A stretch of 64,000 bases of DNA from Eledone cirrhosa (taxonomy: Eukaryota). Of this stretch, positions 7,602 to 57,581 are shown piece after piece. Below the pieces are notes generated by a model, which made no database searches, had not been told where the DNA came from, and worked only from the letters and a program-made list of their open reading frames with translations. A program made the position numbers and the translations under genes. Position 1 is the stretch's first letter. Every line of letters begins with the position of its first letter. The stretch lies in contig OZ024753.1 in the NCBI GenBank assembly GCA_964016885.1, positions 14,260,001 to 14,324,000 on the forward strand, in the 5' to 3' direction.

Positions 7602-7796
7602 GTTCGTGAGAAATCCAGTCAGTTGTCAGCCTATTTCAGTCTTATAGAGAACACTATCAAGTTTTTGGTAAGCAGTGAAGAAGGGCCTCCATTTGATCCC
7701 AACCAAATTATTCAACTATATTCAATCCTTACAGAGACACTCAAGTGTGTCATTTTATTTCTACAAGAGATAAATAAATCATTGCAGTCTTTCCAG
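7602..7796 (+). CDS. NCDN: NCDN exon 4 (VREKSSQLSAYFSLIE...LQSFQ)
   Basis: attgtag acceptor, cag|gtatgt donor, 195 nt, phase 0-0. Confidence 0.88.
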
Positions 7797-10700
7797 GTAT
7801 GTATTTAATGCGTGTGTATGTATTTATGTATATAACATATGTGTGTGTGTGAATATATGTACATGTGTGTGTATATATGCAGTCTTTCCAGGTATGTATA
7901 TAATGCGTGTGTATGTATTTATGTATATAACGTGTGTGTGTGTGTGTGAATATATGTACATGTGTGTGTATATATGCAGTCTTTCCAGGTATGTATATAA
8001 TGCGTGTGTATGTATTTATGTATATAACGTGTGTGTGTGTGTGTGAATATATGTACGTGTGTGTATATATGCAGTCTTTCCAGGTATGTATATAATGCGT
8101 GTGTATGTATTTATGTATATAACGTGTGTGTGTGAATATATGTACGTGTGTGTATATATGCAGTCTTTCCATGTATGTATATAATGCGTGTGTATGTATT
8201 TATGTATATAACATATATGTGTGTGTGTATATATGCAGTCTTTCCAGGTATGTATATAATTGTGTGTGTATGTATTTATGTATATAACGTGTGCGTGTGT
8301 GTGTGAATATATGTACATGTGTGTATATATGCAGTCTTTCCAGGTATGTATATAATGCATGTGTATGTATTTATGTATATAATGTGTGTGTGTGTGAATA
8401 TATGTACATGTGTGTATATATGCAGTCTTTCCAGGTATATATATAATTGTGTGTGTATGTATTTATGTATATAACGTGTGTGTGTAAATATATGTACATG
8501 TGTGTATATATGCAGTCTTTCCAGGTATGTATATAATGCGTGTGTATGTATTTATGTATGTATTTATGTATATAACGTGTGTGTGAATATATGTATGTGT
8601 GTATATATATATATGCAATCTTTCCAGGTATGTATATAATGCGTGTGTATGTATATATGTATATAACGTGTGTGTATGAATATATGTACGTGTGTGTATA
8701 TATGCAGTCTTTCCAGGTATGTATATAATGCGTGTGTATGTATTTATGTATATAACATGTGTGTGCGAATATATGTATGTGTGTATATATGCAGTCTTTC
8801 CAGGTGTGTATATAATGTGTGTGTATGTATTTATGTATATAACGTGTGTGTGTGAATATATGTACGTGTGTGTATATATGCAGTCTTTCCAGGTATGTAT
8901 ATAATGCATGTGTATGTATTTATGTATATAACGTGTGTGTGTGAATATATGTATGTGTGTATATATGCAGTCTTTCCAGGTATGTATATAATGTGTGTGA
9001 ATGTATTTATGTATATAACGTGTGTGTGTGAATATATGTACGTGTGTGTATATATGCAGTCTTTCCAGGTATGTATATAATGCGTGTGTATGTATTTATG
9101 TATATAATGTGTGTGTGAATATATGTATGTGTGTGTATATATGCAGTCTTTCCAGGTATGTATATAATGCGTGTGTATGTATTTATGTATGTATTTATGT
9201 ATATAACATATGTTTGTGTGTGAATATATCTACATGTGTGTATATATGCAGTCTTTCCAGGTATGTATATAATGCGTGTGTATGTATTTATGTATATAAC
9301 GTGTGTGTGTGAATATATGTACGTGTGTGTATATATACAGTCTTTCCAGGTATGTATATAATGCGTGTGTATGTATTTATGTATGTATTTATGTATATAA
9401 CATATGTTTGTGTGTGAATATATGTACATGTGTGTATACATGCAGTCTTTACAGGTATGTATATGATTGTGTGTGTATGTATTTATGTATATAACATATG
9501 TGTGTGTGTGAATATATGTACATGTGTGTGTATATATGCAGTCTTTCCAGGTATGTATATAATGCATGTGTATGTATTTATGTATATAACGTGTGTGTGT
9601 CAATATATGTACATGTGTGTGTATATATGCAGTCTTTCCAGGTATGTATATGATGCATGTGTATGTATTTATGTATGTATTTATATATATAATGTGTGGT
9701 GTGTGAATATATGTACATGTGTGTATATATATGCAGTCTTTCCAGGTATGTATATAATGCGTGTGTATGTATTTATGTATATAACGTGTGTGTGTGAATA
9801 TATGTATGTGTGTGTATATATGCAGTCTTTCCAGGTATGTATATAATGCGTGTGTATGTATTTATGTATATAACATATGTGTGTGAATATATGTACATGT
9901 GTGTATATATATGCAGTCTTTCCAGGTATGTATATAATGCGTGTGTATGTATTTATGTATATAACGTGTGTGTGTGAATATATGTATGTGTGTATATATG
10001 CAGTCTTTCCAGGTATGTATATAATGCGTGTGTATGTATTTATGTATGTATTTATGTATATAATGTGTGTGTGTGAATATATGTATGTGTGTGTATATAT
10101 GCAGTCTTTCCAAGTATGTATATAATGCGTGTGTATGTATTTATGTATATAACGTGTGTGAATATATGTACGTGTGTGTATATATGCAGTCTTTCCAGGT
10201 ATGTATATAATGCGTGTGTATGTATTTATGTATATAACATGTGTGTGCGAATATATGTATGTGTGTATATATGCAGTCTTTCCAGGTGTGTATATAATGT
10301 GTGTGTATGTATTTATGTATATAACGTGTGTGTGTGAATATATGTACGTGTGTGTATATATGCAGTCTTTCCAGGTATGTATATAATGCATGTGTATGTA
10401 TTTATGTATATAACGTGTGTGTGTGAATATATGTATGTGTATATATGCAGTCTTTCCAGGTATGTATATAATGTGTGTGAATGTATTTATGTATATAACG
10501 TGTGTGTGTGAATATATGTACGTGTGTGTATATATGCAGTCTTTCCAGGTATGTATATAATTGTGTGTGTGTATTTATGTATATAACGTGTGTGTGTGAA
10601 TATATGTACGTGTGTGTATATATGCAGTCTTTCCAGGTATGTATATAATTGTGTGTGTGTATTTATGTATGTATTTATGTATATAACGTATGTTTGTGTG

Positions 10701-11150
10701 TGAATATATGTACATGTGTGTATATATGCAGTCTTTCCAGGTATGTATATAATTGTGTGTGTGTATTTATGTATATAACGTGTGTGTGTGAATATATGTA
10801 CGTGTGTGTATATATGCAGTCTTTCCAGGTATGTATATAATTGTGTGTGTGTATTTATGTATGTATTTATGTATATAACATATGTTTGTGTGTGAATATA
10901 TGTACGTGTGTGTATATATGCAGTCTTTCCAGGTATGTATATAATTGTGTGTGTGTATTTATGTATATAACGTGTGTGTGTGAATATATGTACGTGTGTG
11001 TATATATGCAGTCTTTCCAGGTATGTATATAAATGTGTGTGTGTATTTATGTATATAACATGTGTGTGTGTGAATATATGTACGTGTGTGTATATATGCA
11101 GTCTTTCCAGGTATGTATATAATTGTGTGTGTGTATTTATGTATATGTCT
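7783..11150 (+). repeat. ~85-100-bp minisatellite beginning in NCDN exon 4 (unit contains tgcagtctttccag|gtatgt)
   Basis: About 37 copies read directly; explains the HTYI/VCVY ORFs. Confidence 0.95.
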
Positions 11151-13815: not shown

Positions 13816-14365
13816 GGCAGTGAATTGGCAGTTAGAACATTAGACAGAACAATTTACAGTATCTGTTCAACCCATGCTAGTGTGGAAGATGGACATTAAA
13901 GGATGATGATGATGATGATTCTCCTCTCTCTGCTCTCCGAGTTCAAATCCCGCCCAGGTTAATTTTGTCTTTCATCCTTACAGGGTCGATGAAAAAATAT
14001 CAGTCCAGTGTTGATACGGACATGTGATGTGCATGATAGGGTTGGACAGGTCTATAGAGACAGTCAGTACTGAAGCAGGGCTACTGGTCTCCCAGGCCAG
14101 GGATCTGCATCTCACAACATACAGTTTCATTCATTCTACCAAGTGTACAGGAGAGGTTGTTATGTCTTTGATCCAACAAACAAGCATGGACGAGTTGAGA
14201 GTGAAACTGTGTTATAAGAGGGATAAACTGTAGTGTGCGGGAGAGAGGACTGCATTGGTATGGCTATGTGATGCGCATGGAAGATGACCACTGGGTGATG
14301 AAGTGCCAAGAAATCTCGGTGGAAGGAAGACACAGTAGAGGAAGACCATGGAAATCATGGGCGGA

Positions 14366-15044
14366 GCTAAGTATCAACATCTGTTGGTCTTACCTAACTG
14401 TCAACATCTGTTGGTCTTAGCTAAGTGTCAACACCTATTGGCCTTAGCTAACTGTCAACATCTGTTGGTGTTAGCTAACTGTCAACATCTGTTGATCTTA
14501 GCTAACTGTCAACATCTATTGGTCTTAGCTAAGTGTCAATATCTGTTGGTCTTAGCTAAGTGTCAACATATGTTGATCTTAGCTAAGTGTCAATATCTGT
14601 TGGTCTTAGCTAAGTGTCAATATCTGTTGGTCTTAGCTAAGTATCAACATCTGTTGGTCTTAGCTAAGTATCAACATCTGTTGGTCTTAGCTAAGTGTCA
14701 ACACCTATTGGGCTTAGCTAACTGTCAACATCTGTTGATCTTAGCTAACTGTCAACATCTGTTGGTCTTAGCTAAGTGTCAACATCTGTTGGTCTTAGCT
14801 AACTGTCAACATATGTTGTTCTTAGCTAAGTGTCAACATCTGTTGTTCTTAGCTAACTGTCAACATCTGTTGATCTTAGCTAACTGTCAATATCTGTTGG
14901 TCTTAGCTAAGTGTCAACATCTGTTGGTCTTAGCTAAGTGTCAACACCTATTGGTCTTAGCTAAGTGTCAACACCTATTGGTCTTAGCTAAGTGTCAACA
15001 TCTGTTGGTCTTAGCTAAGTGTCAACATCTGTTGGTCTTAGCTA
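14366..15044 (+). repeat. 27-bp satellite, ~25 copies (ttagctaa(g/c)tgtcaacatctgttggtc)
   Basis: Direct reading; the 9-aa QHLLVLAKC period in the ORF track. Confidence 0.95.
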
Positions 15045-22069: not shown

Positions 22070-22209
22070 GTAAGTTGCTCCCCTTCTCATGTGAACACTT
22101 TAAACTGATTACCATCACAGACTTCTCTATTGAACACAACTAATTACCATCACAGTCTTCTTTATTGAACACAACTGATTCCTCTTAGGCCCAGTTTTTC
22201 TTTCAACAT

Positions 22210-23261
22210 TTAGCTAAGGCATATAGATGTTGACAGTTAGTTAAGACTCATGGATCTTGACATATTAGCTAAGACCAACAGATGTTGACAGTTAGCTAAG
22301 ACCAATAGATGTTGACAGTTAGCTAAGACCAATAGATGTTGACAGTTAGCTAAGACCAATAGATGTTGACAGTTAGCTAAGACCAACAGATGTTGACACT
22401 TAGCTAAGACCAATATATGTTGACACAACACTTAGCTAAGACCAATAGATGTTGACACTTAGCTAAGACCAATAGATGTTGACAGTTAGCTAAGACCAAT
22501 AGATGTTGACAGTTAGCTAAGACCAACAGATGTTGACACTTAGCTAATACCAATATATGTTGACACGACACTTAGCTAAGACCAATAGATGTTGACAGTT
22601 AGCTAAGACCAACAGATATTGACACTTAGCTAAGACCAATAGATGTTGACACTTAGCTAAGACCAATAGATGTTGACAGTTAGCTAAGACCAACAGATGT
22701 TGACACTTAGCTTAGACCAATAGATGTTGACACTTAGCTAAGACCAATAGATGTTGACAGTTAGCTAAGACCAACAGATGTTGACACTTAGCTAAGACCA
22801 ATAGATGTTGACAGTTAGCTAAGACCAATAGATGTTGACAGTTAGCTAAGACCAACAGATGTTGACAGTTAGCTAAGACCAATAGATGTTGACAGTTAGC
22901 TAAGACCAATAGATGTTGACAGTTAGCTAAGACCAACAGATGTTGACAGTTAGCTAAGACCAATAGATGTTGACAGTTAGCTAAGACCAATAGATGTTGA
23001 CAGTTAGCTAAGACCAATAGATGTTGACAGTTAGCTAAGACCAATAGATGTTGACACTTAGCTAAGACCAATAGATGTTGACAGTTAGCTAAGACCAATA
23101 GATGTTGACAGTTAGCTAAGACCAAACATATGTTGACAGTTAGTTAAGACCAATAGATGTTGACAATTAGCTAAGACCAAACATATGTTGACAGTTAGCT
23201 AAGACCAATAGATGTTGACTAAGACCAAACATATGTTGACACATTAGCTAAGACCAACAGA
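22210..23261 (-). repeat. Same 27-bp satellite in reverse orientation, ~38 copies
   Basis: ttagctaagaccaa(c/t)agatgttgaca(g/c) is the reverse complement of the 14366-15044 unit. Confidence 0.95.
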
Positions 23262-41271: not shown

Positions 41272-41408
41272 CTTATCTGTAGGTTTCAAAAGTTCTTCTA
41301 CATCTTGTTTCTCCTCGTCTGTAACCTCAGTATTATTTAAAGATTCTAAATATCTCAAGCTGCAGAGAACGTCTATACGGAACTCCTCTTCTCGAGATAC
41401 TGGAGTAT
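41272..41408 (-). CDS. LRRC23: LRRC23 exon 7, LRRcap region (DTPVSREEEFRIDVLCSLRYLESLNNTEVTDEEK...TDK)
   Basis: aatacag acceptor, aag|gtattg donor, phase 1-0; LRRcap-like 'P.....YR..V...L..L..LD...VT.EE'. Confidence 0.88.
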
Positions 41409-43938: not shown

Positions 43939-44015
43939 CATTTAAAAACAAAATTGTAAGACTTGGCAAAGTGGACAGTTTGATCACTTCAGACATTTCC
44001 TCAATGATATTCTCT
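43939..44015 (-). CDS. LRRC23: LRRC23 exon 6 (ENIIEEMSEVIKLSTLPSLTILFLN)
   Basis: tatttcag acceptor, g|gtaagc donor, phase 2-1. Confidence 0.9.
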
Positions 44016-44545: not shown

Positions 44546-44594
44546 TATAAATGATGGAAAAGTAGAAGAAGAAAATGAAAGCCAACGAAATATT

Positions 44595-44727
44595 GTATGG
44601 AAACCCTACCTGAGGTCAATGTATGGAAACCCTAAGTGAGATCAATGTATGGAATCCCTTCCTGAGGTCAATGTATGGAAACCCTACCTGAGATCAATGT
44701 ATGGAAACCCTACCTGAGATCAATGTA
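44595..44727 (-). repeat. 26-bp repeat x5 of the LRRC23 exon 5 end + donor
   Basis: tacattga(t/c)ctcag|gtagggtttcca. Confidence 0.92.
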
Positions 44728-44850
44728 CTTCAGTTGTTTTAACTTGGAATGAAAGCCTTCCAGATCATCAATCATATTGTTATTTAGCTCCAATACTTCT
44801 AAATTGACCAGGTCTGAAATCCACTCAGTGTGGAGAATCTTATTGAAACC
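44714..44850 (-). CDS. LRRC23: LRRC23 exon 5 (GFNKILHTEWISDLVNLEVLELNNNMIDDLEGFHSKLKQLKYIDL)
   Basis: tttttcag acceptor, ag|gtaggg donor, phase 0-2; LxxLxLxxN repeats. Confidence 0.92.
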
Positions 44851-47800
44851 CTGAAAAACAGAGAATAAGGAGGTGCTGACCAGTGACCAATGAAAGACAG
44901 AGAATAAGGAGGTACTGACCAGTGACCAATGATAGACAGAGAATAAGGAGGTACTGACCAGTGACCAATGAAAGGCATGGCATAAGGAGGTGCTGACCAG
45001 TGACCAATGATAGACAGAGAATAAGGAGGTACTGACCAGTGACCAATGAAAGGCATGGCATAAGGAGGTGCTGACCAGTGACCAATGATAGACAGAGAAT
45101 AAGGAGGTGCTGACCAGTGACCAATGATAGACAGAGAATAAGGAGGTACTGACCAGTGACCAATGAAAGGCATGGCATAAGGAGGTGCTGACCAGTGACC
45201 AATGATAGACAGAGAATAAGGAGGTGCTGACCAGTGACCAATGAAAGGCATGGCATAAGGAGGTGCTGACCAGTGACCAATGAAAGGCATGGCATAAGGA
45301 GGTGCTGACCAGTGACCAATGAAAGGCATGGCATAAGGAGGTGCTGACCAGTGACCAATGAAAGACAGAGAATAAGGAGGTGCTGACCAGTGACCAATGA
45401 TAGACAGAGAATAAGGAGGTACTGACCAGTGACCAATGAAAGGCATGGCATAAGGAGGTGCTGACCAGTGACCAATGAAAGGCATGGCATAAGGAGGTGC
45501 TGACCAGTGACCAATGAAAGACAGAGAATAAGGAGATGCTGACCAGTGACCAATGATAGACAGAGAATAAGGAGGTACTGACCAGTGACCAATGATAGAC
45601 AAAGAATAAGGAGGTACTGACCAGTGACCAATGAAAGGCATGGCATAAGGAGGTGCTGACCAGTGACCAATGAAAGGCATGGCATAAGGAGGTGCTGACC
45701 AGTGACCAATGAAAGGCATGGCATAAGGAGGTACTGACCAGTGACCAATGAAAGACAGAGAATAAGGAGGTGCTGACCAGTGACCAATGATAGACAGAGA
45801 ATAAGGAGGTACTGACCAGTGACCAATGATAGACAGAGAATAAGGAGGTACTGACCAGTGACCAATGAAAGGCATGGCATAAGGAGGTGCTGACCAGTGA
45901 CCAATGAAAGGCATGGCATAAGGAGGTGCTGACCAGTGACCAATGAAAGAGAGAATAAGGAGGTACTGACCAGTGACCAATGAAAGGCATGGCATAAGGA
46001 GGTGCTGACCAGTGACCAATGAAAGGCATGGCATAAGGAGGTGCTGACCAGTGACCAATGAAAGGCATGGCATAAGGAGGTGCTGACCAGTGACCAATGA
46101 AAGAGAGAATAAGGAGGTGCTGACCAGTGACCAATGATAGACAGAGAATAAGGAGGTACTGACCAGTGACCAATGATAGACAGAGAATAAGGAGGTACTG
46201 ACCAGTGACCAATGATAGACAGAGAATAAGGAGGTACTGACCAGTGACCAATGATAGACAGAGAATAAGGAGGTACTGACCAGTGACCAATGATAGACAG
46301 AGAATAAGGAGGTACTGACCAGTGACCAATGAAAGGCATGGCATAAGGAGGTGCTGACCAGTGACCAATGAAAGAGAGAATAAGGAGGTGCTGACCAGTG
46401 ACCAATGATAGACAGAGAATAAGGAGGTACTGACCAGTGACCAATGATAGACAGAGAATAAGGAGGTACTGACCAGTGACCAATGATAGACAGAGAATAA
46501 GGAGGTACTGACCAGTGACCAATGATAGACAGAGAATAAGGAGGTACTGACCAGTGACCAATGATAGACAGAGAATAAGGAGGTACTGACCAGTGACCAA
46601 TGAAAGGCATGGCATAAGGAGGTGCTGACCAGTGACCAATGATAGACAGAGAATAAGGAGGTACTGACCAGTGACCAATGAAAGGCATGGCATAAGGAGG
46701 TGCTGACCAGTGACCAATGATAGACAGAGAATAAGGAGGTACTGACCAGTGACCAATGAAAGGCATGGCATAAGGAGGTACTGACCAGTGACCAATGATA
46801 GACAGAGAATAAGGAGGTGCTGACCAGTGACCAATGAAAGGCATGGCATAAGGAGGTGCTGACCAGTGACCAATGAAAGGCATGGCATAAGGAGGTACTG
46901 ACCAGTGACCAATGATAGACAGAGAATAAGGAGGTACTGACCAGTGACCAATGATAGACAGAGAATAAGGAGGTACTGACCAGTGACCAATGAAAGGCAT
47001 GGCATAAGGAGGTGCTGACCAGTGACCAATGAAAGGCATGGCATAAGGAGGTGCTGACCAGTGACCAATGAAAGGCATGGCATAAGGAGGTGCTGACCAG
47101 TGACCAATGAAAGAGAGAATAAGGAGGTGCTGACCAGTGACCAATGATAGACAGAATAAGGAGGTACTGACCAGTGACCAATGAAAGGCATGGCATAAGG
47201 AGGTGCTGACCAGTGACCAATGAAAGGCATGGCATAAGGAGGTGCTGACCAGTGACCAATGAAAGAGAGAATAAGGAGGTGCTGACCAGTGACCAATGAT
47301 AGACAGAATAAGGAGGTACTGACCAGTGACCAATGAAAGGCATGGCATAAGGAGGTGCTGACCAGTGACCAATGAAAGGCATGGCATAAGGAGGTGCTGA
47401 CCAGTGACCAATGATAGACAGAGAATAAGGAGGTACTGACCAGTGACCAATGAAAGGCATGGCATAAGGAGGTGCTGACCAGTGACCAATGATAGACAGA
47501 GAATAAGGAGGTACTGACCAGTGACCAATGAAAGGCATGGCATAAGGAGGTGCTGACCAGTGACCAATGAAAGGCATGGCATAAGGAGGTGCTGACCAGT
47601 GACCAATGATAGACAGAGAATAAGGAGGTACTGACCAGTGACCAATGAAAGGCATGGCATAAGGAGGTGCTGACCAGTGACCAATGATAGACAGAGAATA
47701 AGGAGGTGCTGACCAGTGACCAATGAAAGACAGAGAATAAGGAGGTACTGACCAGTGACCAATGAAAGGCATGGCATAAGGAGGTGCTGACCAGTGACCA

Positions 47801-47986
47801 ATGATAGACAGAGAATAAGGAGGTGCTGACCAGTGACCAATGAAAGACAGAGAATAAGGAGGTACTGACCAGTGACCAATGATAGACAGAGAATAAGGAG
47901 GTACTGACCAGTGACCAATGAAAGGCATGGCATAAGGAGGTACTGACCAGTGACCAATGAAAGGCATGGCATAAGGAGGTACTAAC
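44851..47986 (-). repeat. 39-bp (some 37-bp) satellite, ~80 copies, forming the whole of LRRC23 intron 4
   Basis: 13-aa periodic ORFs; array begins at the donor GT and ends at the acceptor AG. Confidence 0.95.
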
Positions 47987-48111
47987 CAGTGAAAGTGTTG
48001 TCAGACTTGGTATGTTGATTTTTTCAATATACTCAAGAAGATTTGATGAAGCTTTGAGAGTTGTGAGATGAGGAGATCCCTTTAACTGGGACAGGTCCCT
48101 GATTTTATTGC
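47987..48111 (-). CDS. LRRC23: LRRC23 exon 4 (GNKIRDLSQLKGSPHLTTLKASSNLLEYIEKINIPSLTTLSL); not in the ORF track
   Basis: ccattccag acceptor, ctg|gttagt donor, phase 1-0; two LRR units. Confidence 0.9.
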
Positions 48112-49117: not shown

Positions 49118-49374
49118 CACTGATGTCAATAAACTTAATAATTGGGTGAGTTAATCCCTCAGAAATGTCCACAATCCTGTTAGAACCAAGGGAAATATAC
49201 TGTAAATAGGAATGGGCCTCAAGAGCAATTTTTTCAATGCTGTTTCTGTCTGCTTTCAGGAATAATAAATTTGGCAAGAAGTTGAGAGGACTTAGATCTG
49301 TGAATTGGTTGTGACTAATATCAACAATTCTCAAATGGATATATTTCTCCAGAATGTTGAAACTGTTGAGTTCC
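49118..49374 (-). CDS. LRRC23: LRRC23 exon 3 (ELNSFNILEKYIHLRIVDISHNQFTDLSPLN...KFIDIS), proximal acceptor
   Basis: ttcccag acceptor, g|gtaagt donor, phase 2-1; matches 'YIHLRYVDIS.N.LTDLSPLN.L..LL.LKAD.N'. Confidence 0.93.
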
Positions 49375-50372
49375 CTGGGAAATAAGAGAGGTAGATATAA
49401 ATTGATATATTTCTCCAGAATGTTGAGTTCCCTGGCAAATAAAAGAGGTAGATATAAATTAATATATTTCTCCAGAATGTTGAGTTCCCTGGGAAATAAG
49501 AGAGGTAGATATAAATTGATATATTTCTCCAGAATGTTGAAACTGGTGAGTTCCCTGGGAAATAAAAGAGGTAGATATGAATAGATATATTTCTCCAGAA
49601 TGTTGAGTTCCCTGGGAAATAAGAGAGGTAGATATAAATTGATATATTTCTCCAGAATGTTGAGTTCCCTGGGAAATAAAAGAGGTAGATATGAATAGAT
49701 ATATTTCTCCAGAATTTTGAGTTCCCTGGGAAACAAGAGAGGTAGATATAAATTGATATATTTCTCCAGAATGTTGAAACTGTTGAGTTCCCTGGGAAAT
49801 AAAAGAGGTAGATATGAATAGATATATTTCTCCAGAATTTTGAGTTCCCTGGGAAACAAGAGAGGTAGATATAAATTGATATATTTCTCCAGAATGTTGA
49901 AACTGTTGAGTTCCCTGGGAAATAAAAGAGGTAGATATAAATTGATATATTTCTCCAGAATGTTGAGTTCCCTGGGAAATAAAAGAGGTAGATATGAATA
50001 GATATATTTCTCCAGAATTTTGAGTTCCCTGGGAAACAAGAGAGGTAGATATAAATTGATATATTTCTCCAGAATGTTGAAACTGGTGAGTTCCCTGGGA
50101 AATAAAAGAGGTAGATATGAATTGATATATTTCTCCAGAATGTTGAGTTCCCTGGGAAATAAGAGAGGTAGATATAAATTGATATATTTTTCCAGAATGT
50201 TGAAACTGGTGAGTTCCCTGGGAAATAAAAGAGGTAGATATGAATTGATATATTTCTCCAGAATGTTGAGTTCCCTGGGAAATAAGAGAGGTAGATATAA
50301 ATTGATATATTTTTCCAGAATGTTGAAACTGGTGAGTTCCCTGGGAAATAAAAGAGGTAGATATAAATTGAT
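49375..50372 (-). repeat. 57/66-bp tandem copies of the LRRC23 exon 3 acceptor + exon start
   Basis: ttccctgg recurs 17 times between 49371 and 50337. Confidence 0.95.
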
Positions 50373-51057
50373 TTAGGCAGAAAGCCAATAATTTTGGGGG
50401 AGGGGAAAGTTGATTAAATCCCCACCCTGTGCATTATTGGTACTTTGTTTTATCGACCCAGTAAGGATGAAAGGCAAAGCTAACCTCAGCAGGATTTGAA
50501 CTCAGAACGCACAAAGCATGTTGTCTGACACTCTACCGATATTGCCAATCCACAGCCCTATATAAGTATATAATAATTGTTTAAGAGTAAAGGGTCGTAA
50601 CACCGATGGAGCCCATCTCTCCAGGTTTGAATACAGTCGATTTCTTGAGGGAGGAAATAAGAGGAAGAATGAATCCCAGTACATGACTGGTACTTTTTTT
50701 TATCAACCTCAATGGATGAAAGGCAAAGTTGACCTCAGTGGGATTTGAACTCAAGAGCGCAGAGAGATGGCACGAATACTACAAAACATTCTATATGACA
50801 CACAGATATATATAGAAATGGCTTTTACCGGACTAGAACTGTTTCATTTGTATGAAATCGTCATCATCGCTATTTAACCTCTATTTTCCATGCTTGCATG
50901 GGATGGAGAGGCTGACACGTTAGGAGGTCAGGTGACCCTGTCTGTTCATACATTCCATTTTTGGCTTGGTATTCTATGGCTGGATACATTTTCTAATGCC
51001 AAGCTCATTACAAAATGGTCTGCATGTGTTTTGTTGTGTCACCAATCCCTAACATAA

Positions 51058-51845
51058 CCACCTTATAGAGTAGACTGGATGTTGTGAGACCTATACGACC
51101 ACCTTATAGAGTGGACTGGGTGGCTTTTGTTGTGAGACCTATACGACCACCTTATAGAGTGGACTGGGTGGCTTTTGTTGTGAGACCTATACGACCACCT
51201 TATAGAGTGGACTGGCTGGCTTTTGTTGCGAGACCTATACGACCACCTTATAGAGTGGACTGGCTGGCTTTTGTTGCGAGACATACACGACCACCTTATA
51301 GAGTGGACTGGCTGGCTTTTGTTGCGAGACCTATACGACCACCTTATAGAGTGGACTGGCTGGCTTTTGTTGCGAGACATACACGACCACCTTATAGAGT
51401 GGACTGGCTGGCTTTTGTTGTGAGACCTATACGACCACCTTATAGAGTGGACTGGCTGGCTTTTGTTGCGAGACCTATACGACCACCTTATAGAGTGGAC
51501 TGGGTGGCTTTTGTTGCGAGACCTATACGACCACCTTATAGAGTGGACTGGCTGGCTTTTGTTGCGAGACCTATACGACCACCTTATAGAGTGGACTGGC
51601 TGGCTTTTGTTGCGAGACCTATACGACCACCTTATAGAGTGGACTGGCTGGCTTTTGTTGCGAGACCTATACGACCACCTTATAGAGTGGACTGGCTGGC
51701 TTTTGTTGCGAGACCTATACGACCACCTTATAGAGTGGACTGGCTGGCTTTTGTTGTGAGATCTATACGACCACCTTATAGAGTGGACTGGCTGGCTTTT
51801 ATTGTGAGACCTATACGACCACCTTATAGAGTGGACTGGGTGGAT
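51058..51845. repeat. 48-bp SINE-derived satellite, ~16 copies
   Basis: ccaccttatagagtggactggctggcttttgttgcgagacctatacga. Confidence 0.93.
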
Positions 51846-52455
51846 CTTTTTTCATAGAACCAGCACCAGTTTATGGTCACTAAATTCTACTCACAAGTTA
51901 TTGATCAACCCGAAGCTATAGTAGAAGACACTTGACCAGATGTCACGCAGTGAACCTGAAGACACTTAACCAGATGTCATGCAGTGAACCTGAAACAATG
52001 TCTGCGCCTAATTGGGTAAGACAAAAGGATATATATATATATACACACAGATATACATATATATCCTTTGTATATTGGAGTTGAAGGAGAAGCTGGGCTT
52101 AAGAAGAATTTAAGGTAGTGTACAGGAGAGAAGATGAGATTGGTTTGGACATGTGATGCACATGGACAATTATCGTTGGGTGAAGAAGTACCAGGAAATG
52201 ACAGTGGAAGGAGACCAAGACAGACCTGGACAGAGGTCTGAAACTGACAGAGGTGATGACAAAGGATGGCGATGTGTGGAGAGATGCCATGCTGAGAAGG
52301 ACCCATGGAAAAGTGGACATAAAAACGACGACAATGATGATATATATATATATATTATATTATATGTTACATTAATTAGATAATATTTAATATTACCCAC
52401 ATTATATATATATAGAGATACAATTATATATATATATGTATGTGTATTAACGTAC

Positions 52456-52565
52456 CTATTACTGCAATCAAGTCGAATGTACACATAGGAGAGACTGTCC
52501 CCTATTCTGAAGAGTAAGGATATACATTCATTTATTATGTCTTCTGTCAAAGTATTATTTTCTTG
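52456..52565 (-). CDS. LRRC23: LRRC23 exon 2 (QENNTLTEDIINECISLLFRIGDSLSYVYIRLDCSN)
   Basis: ttttctag acceptor, ag|gtacg donor, phase 0-2; matches 'LTED...GLSLLCKTG.GL.HAYV.L'. Confidence 0.92.
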
Positions 52566-55264: not shown

Positions 55265-55354
55265 CTTTTCCACCTCTTCGTCTAATGGAGCTGGTGTTAG
55301 AAAATCTTCCTCTTCATTATCCTCTTCGAGGTCTGCTAGTTCTGGCACTGACAT
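55265..55354 (-). CDS. LRRC23: LRRC23 homologue, first coding exon (MSVPELADLEEDNEEEDFLTPAPLDEEVEK)
   Basis: ATG at 55354; acidic N-terminus typical of LRRC23; aag|gtaa donor, phase 0; an acceptor-like site near 55448 suggests an upstream UTR exon. Confidence 0.8.
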
Positions 55355-56571: not shown

Positions 56572-57581
56572 TGTCACTCTAATAGTCCCCCAAACAAGAG
56601 ACATGGCCAGCCCATCTATATTTGCTCTTCTTGGTAGTCTCCTCTGTCACTCTAATAGTACCCCTGTTGTCCTCCAAACAAGAGACATGGCCAGCCCATC
56701 TATATTTGCTCTTCTTGATGGTCTCCTCTGTCACTCTAATAGTCCCCCAAACAAGAGACATGGCCAGCCCATCTATATTTGCTCTTCTTGATAGTCTCCT
56801 CTGTCACTCTAATAGTCCCCCTGTTGTCCTCCAAACAAGAGACATGGCCAGCCCATCTATATTTGCTCTTCTTGATAGTCTCCTCTGTCACTCTAATAGT
56901 CCCCCTGTTGTCCTCCAAACAAGAGACATGGCCAGCCCATCTATATTTGCTCTTCTTGATAGTCTCCTCTGTCACTCTAATAGTCCCCCTGTTGTCCTCC
57001 AAACAAGAGACATGGCCAGCCCATCTATATTTGTTCTTCTTGGTCGTCTCCTCTGTCACTCTAATAGTCCCCCTGTTGTCTCTCAAACAAGAGACATGGC
57101 CAGCCCATCTATATTTGCTCTTCTTGATGGTCTCCTCTGTCACTCTAATAGTCCCCCTGTTGTCTCTCAAACAAGAGACATGGCCAGCCCATCTATATTT
57201 GCGCTTCTTGATGGTCTCCTCTGTCACTCTAATAGTCCCCCTGTTGTCCCCCAAACAAGAGACATGGCCAGCCCATCTATATTTGCTCTTCTTGATAGTC
57301 TCCTCTGTCACTCTAATAGTCCCCCTGTTGTCCTCCAAACAAGAGACATGGCCAGCCCATCTATATTTGCTCTTCTTGATAGTCTCCTCTGTCACTCTAA
57401 TAGTCCCCCTGTTGTCCTCCAAACAAGAGACATGGCCAGCCCATCTATATTTGCTCTTCTTGATGGTCTCCTCTGTCACTCTAATCGTCCCCCTGTTGTC
57501 TCTCAAAGAAGAGACATGGCCAGCCCATCTATATTTGCGCTTCTTTATGGTCTCCTCTGTCACTCTAATAGTCCCCCTGTT
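56572..57581 (-). repeat. 84-bp satellite, ~12 copies, derived from an RTE ORF C-terminus
   Basis: 28-aa period KYRWAGHVSCLEDNRGTIRVTEE; flanked by RT remnants. Confidence 0.9.

Follow-up and report, generated by a model that had tools for sequence, protein, structure and literature searches.

The window, a stretch of 64,000 nucleotides from Eledone cirrhosa, carries on its minus strand a gene in which exons 2–7 align collinearly with an LRRC23 profile and with LRRC23 proteins of octopods (tblastn/HMM; Table 1). The seven-exon model is open over 311 codons; among named proteins, those of Octopus bimaculoides (60% identity in exon 3) and Argonauta come closest. These collinear matches uphold the name LRRC23 that an earlier note had given to the gene, which on sequence similarity is a diverged LRRC23 paralogue. 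A pseudogene was considered and rejected because the gene model is open and exon 3 appears to be spliced. In mouse, LRRC23 is described as a head protein of radial spoke 3 (PMC10721216; bioRxiv 10.1101/2025.05.19.654877), and its N-terminal hairpin and LRRs are both described as contacting AK9 (bioRxiv 10.1101/2025.05.19.654877). By analogy with mouse, the Eledone gene likely has a role in the sperm tail, and its exon 2 would encode the AK9-contacting hairpin.

Table 1. Features of the LRRC23-like gene, its junction arrays, and other repeats in the window.
Feature	Positions	Strand	Evidence or remarks
Predicted coding exon 1 (ATG, acidic N-terminus)	55265..55354	-	Sequence; GT donor and open frame in gene model; weak profile match
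Exon 2	52456..52565	-	tblastn/HMM to LRRC23; donor GT at 52455 partners all 17 acceptors
Putative original intron-2 3' end (most upstream acceptor)	50341..50375	-	27/35 columns identical to the paralogue's single acceptor
Junction-spanning minisatellite	49375..50372	-	16 full units (10 x 57 bp, 6 x 66 bp) plus 33-nt intron end of first copy
Exon 3, true LRRs	49118..49374	-	257 nt from exon-nearest acceptor; Pfam, LRRC23 structures, X4 contig
Exon 4	47987..48111	-	LRRC23 profile, octopod protein matches, gene model
Intron 4, 39/37-bp array throughout	44851..47986	-	81 CTG/GTYAGY donor look-alikes
Exon 5	44714..44850	-	LRRC23 profile, octopod protein matches, gene model
26-bp array, 5 copies, reiterating exon-5 donor	44594..44727	-	Out of frame; CAG/GTAGGG kept in 3/5
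Exon 6	43939..44015	-	LRRC23 profile, octopod protein matches, gene model
Exon 7 (provisional 3' limit of gene model)	41272..41408	-	LRRC23 profile, gene model
Neurochondrin exon with its donor array	7783..11144	+	Pfam PF05536 (exon)
Dispersed repeat fragment	~50375..50510	-	Several copies in window; ends exactly at array start
Other long minisatellite	51080..51843		48 bp
Other long minisatellite	56585..57581		84 bp
Other long minisatellite	14365..15044		27 bp
Other long minisatellite	22206..23219		27 bp

A motif scan of the window identified 17 acceptor look-alikes on the minus strand, each comprising [C/G]CAG directly followed by GGAACTCA. Their exon starts lie at 50340, 50274, 50217, 50151, 50094, 50028, 49971, 49914, 49848, 49791, 49725, 49668, 49611, 49554, 49488, 49431, and 49374. 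The tandem-repeat signal is far beyond chance (TRF score 1336–1500). Each unit joins the start of exon 3 to the 3' end of intron 2, with its pyrimidine tract and CAG; the 66-bp unit comprises 33 nt of intron end and 33 nt of exon start and thus spans the exon-intron boundary. The 57-bp unit is the 66-bp unit minus 9 nt between short direct repeats. The pyrimidine tract and CAG/G are kept in 17 of 17 acceptors, including the variant GCCAG at 49431. The acceptors are nearly identical, and no visible feature singles out the last one. Ten distinct unit sequences were found, with a mean of 2.6 differences per 57 nt, and the units are without a donor-like GT at the duplicated junction. When the exon-2 donor (last exon base 52456) is joined to any of the 17 acceptors, the frame is free of stops through exon 3. 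The acceptor scan and translation thereby confirm what the earlier note had reported of the array, namely 17 in-frame acceptors separated by ten 57-bp and six 66-bp units that total 966 nt (322 aa) without a stop, together with its claim that use of an upstream acceptor would yield an in-frame product. The microhomology that it had described as joining the exon and intron parts, atc(a/c)attt, was likewise found 33 nt either side of the junction.

A paralogue of the gene is present on the same contig, approximately 2 Mb away (G000:C13 16.44 Mb). At its exon 3, one homologous acceptor is present without any array, and the comparison of its last 34 intron bases with the most upstream copy here yields matches in 27 of 35 columns. 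Intron 2 is therefore old, because the paralogue has the same intron and the end of that intron matches the most upstream array copy. This points to an origin of the array in this gene copy after the gene duplication. The start of exon 3 differs among copies: Thr is found at this position in 120 of 124 family proteins and is kept in the most upstream copy (50340–50332, minus strand), and the coding copy (49374–49366, minus strand) has Asn, as do two of the upstream long units. This comparison of sequences suggests that the real exon start went from Thr to Asn through turnover of the array or a subsequent point change.

Two further observations concern relatives of the gene. At the exon-4 donor of the paralogue (L013 1404–1518), approximately three copies of the 39/32-bp donor unit that is also seen in intron 4 were identified; the last 33 exon bases are 30/33 identical between the two genes, against 96/131 for the exon overall, which may reflect gene conversion or an old seed of the array. 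Two LRRC23 models of Octopus bimaculoides (P0246 and P0391) are without the exon 1–2 part and begin at the exon-3 start with differing short leaders. The same intron may have been misassembled or misannotated there.

The earlier note characterized the units as LRR-sized repeats. LRRs have a repeat length of 20–30 aa, and this length criterion excludes 10 of the 16 units, which encode 19 aa. The proposed 22-aa period holds for the remaining six units, those of 66 bp; the unit peptide given with it does not generalize, since ELNSF is encoded in only two of the six long units and ELTSF in the other four. A Pfam search with an E cutoff of 1 found no LRR family in the 322 array residues, and exon 3 matches LRR_4, LRR_8, and LRR_1. 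Relative to the LxxLxLxxNxL core, array units have Pro at positions 4 and 8 and Arg at position 9, such that the strand and Asn positions of the real repeat are replaced by two prolines and an arginine. Pro at position 8 is observed in 0 of 998 family LRR cores; the pattern for these cores fixed positions 1, 4, 6, 9, and 11, which are thus uninformative in this comparison. In total, 31 prolines are present among the 322 array residues.

With a 59-row alignment, AlphaFold predicted helices for residues 16–307, with block pLDDT values of 45–67, and an LRR fold for exon 3 with pLDDT of about 90; low confidence on the array is expected because almost no true homologous rows are available there. 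A short strand predicted at residues 323–326 falls in the last unit, where the alignment placed exon-2 residues of orthologues. Single-sequence prediction also gave helices, at a mean pLDDT of 39, in a run in which the real LRRs failed too. Foldseek aligned only 66–114 columns, an exon-sized part, with best matches to the LRRC23 structures 9fqr_Xm and 9d2f_B in the exon-3 region. Collectively, as judged from sequence and predicted structure, the added units are not LRRs, and we found no support for the description of the units as LRR-sized repeats, given the absence of a Pfam LRR match, the low-confidence helices, and the predominance of 19-aa units.

The family is also invariant where the array would add residues. 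Of 123 LRRC23-like proteins, 122 have 18 residues across the exon 2/3 junction, the remaining one having been missed by the pattern, and the same spacing results here when the exon-nearest acceptor is used. An insert at this junction was seen in no family member. In each of the 150 best representatives, the best stretch began at residue 286 of the 418-residue query or later. A search for full-length proteins with residues 312–418 of the array-plus-exon frame returned none among 134 candidates at E up to 1e-8, although this search is weak because known relatives were missed too.

The uninterrupted frame of the array might appear to be a mark of coding function. However, shuffled versions of the intron part were stop-free in 60% of trials and the odds that a unit length is divisible by three are 1 in 3, and a first unit that is both in frame and open is therefore expected in roughly 1 of 5 cases. 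The rough chance that all 16 units would be in frame, given two unit lengths, is 1 in 15. The open frame does not greatly exceed chance expectation and would reflect luck or, at most, a filter of tolerance rather than selection for new repeats.

Four other junction arrays, two of them in the same gene, break the frame or carry stops. The array of intron 4 comprises 73 units of 39 bp and 7 of 37 bp, is net out of frame, and runs from donor to acceptor, with the acceptor itself resembling a modified unit. It is stop-free in all three sense-strand frames, and its first 18 donors are in frame because the first 37-bp unit is number 18. In the short array at the exon-5 donor, the GT is lost in two copies. 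On the other strand, an exon of the neighboring neurochondrin gene precedes an array in which its donor CAG/GT recurs at least 35 times (35 matched copies), in units of mostly 85–105 bp that break the frame. Outside the window, a kinesin exon occurs in four nearly identical copies of its gene (L070, L072, L075, and L076), with 2, 5, 5, and 3 acceptors, respectively, in units of 119, 120, or 140 bp with in-frame stops. The kinesin case is a second acceptor array, and its length differs between paralogues.

The base rate of such junctions was estimated from the best 30 of 72 myosin matches and the best 30 of 107 kinesin matches in this genome (G000), with exon ends inferred rather than annotated. 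After four long uninterrupted matches were dropped, 56 loci remained, and a duplicated junction was detected in 5 of these, originating from 2 independent exons (the kinesin exon and a myosin exon with its donor copied once). Arrays cover 24% of the window, counting those with a period of 20 or more, and 9.6% of the 60 kinesin and myosin loci. The kinesin, myosin, neurochondrin, intron-4, and exon-5 cases indicate that junction arrays are a recurring by-product in this repeat-rich genome, and the survey suggests that three in one gene exceed the surveyed rate. Several myosin matches (G000:C18:36957815-36961258, C2:18980830-18982542, and C3:145268933-145271344) share open frames of 823–1179 aa across separate exon-sized matches, with a long array beside the exon in at least one such locus (L040). 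These long frames may be further stop-free intronic arrays.

Evidence on which acceptor is used comes from run X4, which carries no RNA record and is taken as RNA from the layout of its contigs; it derives from a sample other than that of X1 and X2, and its allele may differ. A single 321-nt contig (depth 2.8) covers 49340–49117 without differences, stops at the exon-3 donor, and continues for 97 letters that are off the stretch, while the unique intron is uncovered. X4 is thus probably RNA and its exon-3 contig probably spliced. The contig does not show the exon 2/3 join because 34 nt separate its end from the acceptor, and no read or contig crosses this junction. The array units examined (3.5 of 16) had no cover in X4, where a hole in contigs proves nothing by itself. 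In simulations at depths of 1–2.8, an even ladder of acceptor use left no array 31-mer in 0–5% of trials and distal-only use left none in 0–0.1%; upstream use of 10% was missed in 64–91% of trials and use of the nearest two acceptors at 40% in 50–89%. X4 is accordingly weak evidence against a full ladder and is no evidence against a minor leak, because the sample is a different one and contigs show presence, not absence.

We consider it likely that the array is a recent junction-spanning minisatellite in which the exon-nearest acceptor is mainly used, with the other 16 acceptors being decoys that are removed with the intron. Under this scenario, one duplication by slippage or unequal crossover, bounded by the 8-nt microhomology, would have followed the gene duplication, and subsequent expansion and mixing of units would have copied the intron 2/exon 3 boundary 17 times. 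That the expansion was recent and mixed is suggested by the few differences between units and by their ten distinct sequences. The duplication-by-microhomology origin proposed in the earlier note therefore holds along with its array geometry, at the level of what the repeat structure can suggest. Exon definition would favor the 257-nt exon over exons of 314–1223 nt. A leaky transcript would separate the exon-2 part from the LRR solenoid by 19–322 residues that contain prolines and form no LRR, and its product would likely be non-functional.

Several lines of evidence favor decoy acceptors: LRR families match exon 3 and not the array; the fixed spacing of 18 residues is obtained with the exon-nearest acceptor; the AlphaFold model has low-confidence helices on the array, and Foldseek aligns only the exon-sized part; best stretches in the 150 representatives never start before residue 286; the paralogue has a single homologous acceptor; and the other four junction arrays break frame or carry stops. 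Weaker support comes from X4, where the exon-3 contig looks spliced and the array units are uncovered, a pattern that the simulated ladder rarely produces. Human donor arrays, as described in PMC1557585, point in the same direction: splicing is confined to the authentic site in F7, lamin B2, and PDGF and takes in two pseudo-sites besides it in 6-16 and CBS. On the other side, all 16 units are in frame with two lengths, which is somewhat improbable by chance; nothing in the 17 nearly identical acceptors favors the last; and, in that same source, two studies of engineered splice-site duplications are reported with opposite results and the natural precedents are donors.

An alternative that we consider unlikely, albeit one to be taken seriously, is that one or both of the closest upstream acceptors (49431 and 49488) are used in more than 10% of transcripts, yielding isoforms of +19 and +38 aa as tolerated splicing noise. 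Such products would be in frame and stop-free and would therefore escape nonsense-mediated decay, and their exons of 314 and 371 nt would be only slightly longer than 257 nt. Pseudo-site use in the 6-16 and CBS donor arrays (as described in PMC1557585) provides a precedent, and the simulations indicate that a leak of this kind is compatible with X4 cover. However, the junction spacing does not vary in the family, the acceptor at 49431 is the GCCAG variant, and the X4 contigs gave no positive sign of use.

Far less probable is a ladder extending to +322 aa, in which many acceptors are used, scanning to the most upstream acceptor included, and the intron is recruited as new repeats. Both unit lengths are multiples of three, 16 of 16 units are stop-free, the 66-bp unit reproduces the local 22-aa period, and the most upstream copy keeps the Thr of the family where the exon-nearest copy has Asn. 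Repeats are also reported to be retained in alternative transcripts of human paralogues (PMC2812944). Yet the units are not LRRs by the analyses above and mostly fall short at 19 aa, their prolines include one at a core position where the family has none, the sister arrays are out of frame, and array contigs would have been expected in X4 under even or distal-only use, although this last argument is weak. The length ladder of isoforms put forward in the earlier note is consequently not supported, with the fixed family spacing and frame-breaking sister arrays opposing it and X4 weakly so; nor is its view of the locus as a snapshot of repeat-protein growth by intron exonisation, given that the units are not LRRs and the family spacing is fixed. 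It is similarly improbable that several acceptors are used in the gonad, such that an unstable array length would set a heritable ladder of LRRC23 isoforms with a helical spacer of 19–322 aa and array turnover would have rewritten the exon start from Thr to Asn.

The earlier note had made its claims depend on the array being present in sequencing data, and multi-copy contigs were identified in both X1 and X2. Depth of array contigs relative to the unique flank was 58.3 versus 9.7 in X1 and 40.1 versus 6.9 in X2, or about 6-fold, for contigs covering 3.5 of 16 units. The mean number of assembled copies of the 31-mers in these contigs is 5.3, which is close to the depth ratio. X1 and X2 represent one sample, possibly the assembled one, and hence not an independent animal; a RAD run (X5) had zero cover on exon 3 and array. 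Tandem arrays are hard to assemble and no listed contig spans this one, but an artefact of assembly, or a real array of much smaller length, is highly improbable and was rejected, given ten distinct unit sequences in non-periodic order and a multi-copy depth in both runs that matches the assembled copies.

The decoy reading has counterparts among known junction-spanning repeats. The 37-bp VNTR at the exon 7/intron 7 boundary of human F7 likewise has a junction-spanning unit that reiterates an apparently functional splice site. F7, lamin B2, and PDGF are, however, donor arrays, whereas the Eledone array is composed of acceptors that are all in frame, occurs in an invertebrate, and is known from sequence alone. 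In the human 6-16 and CBS intron-13 minisatellites, 15–25 pseudo-sites derive from a junction-spanning repeat, as here, but on the donor side (PMC1557585), in contrast to the 3' side in Eledone. Internal tandem repeats are also described at exon-intron boundaries of recently duplicated human genes, some of them retained in alternative transcripts (PMC2812944). Those repeats and the array here are both paralogue-specific at an exon boundary and could be spliced out or retained; the human cases have transcript support for alternative forms, and none was found here. Finally, in intron gain by tandem genomic duplication, a duplicated exonic AGGT is described as creating a new intron (PMC3443670). 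In that model, as at this locus, a splice signal comes to be present twice through tandem duplication and the extra copy can be concealed by splicing, but the result there is a new intron, whereas here an existing acceptor was apparently copied and an old intron lengthened. Intron gain by AGGT duplication was rejected for this locus because the intron pre-exists at the same position in the paralogue; the units also have no donor-like GT. Literature searches, covering the main texts of largely open-access papers, returned no paper on natural acceptor-side arrays or on cephalopod junction arrays. By analogy, the best reading of the locus is as an acceptor-side mirror of the human F7, CBS, and 6-16 donor arrays.

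If the exon-nearest acceptor dominates, the locus would provide a natural parallel, on the acceptor side, to the F7 donor array. Its 17 near-identical 3' splice sites, many with unit-specific SNPs, would make scanning versus exon definition testable in an invertebrate, with the two donor arrays of the same gene serving as internal comparisons. If several acceptors are used, this gene with its three arrays would offer a natural system in which to study spliceosomal choice between sites that are almost the same. For annotation, the locus is a caution that a long open frame may prove to be an intronic array where a genome is rich in repeats. The array would bear on the growth of repeat proteins only if the upstream sites are used and translated; it is likely an incidental product of the high repeat content of this genome, and not a novel route by which a protein grows.
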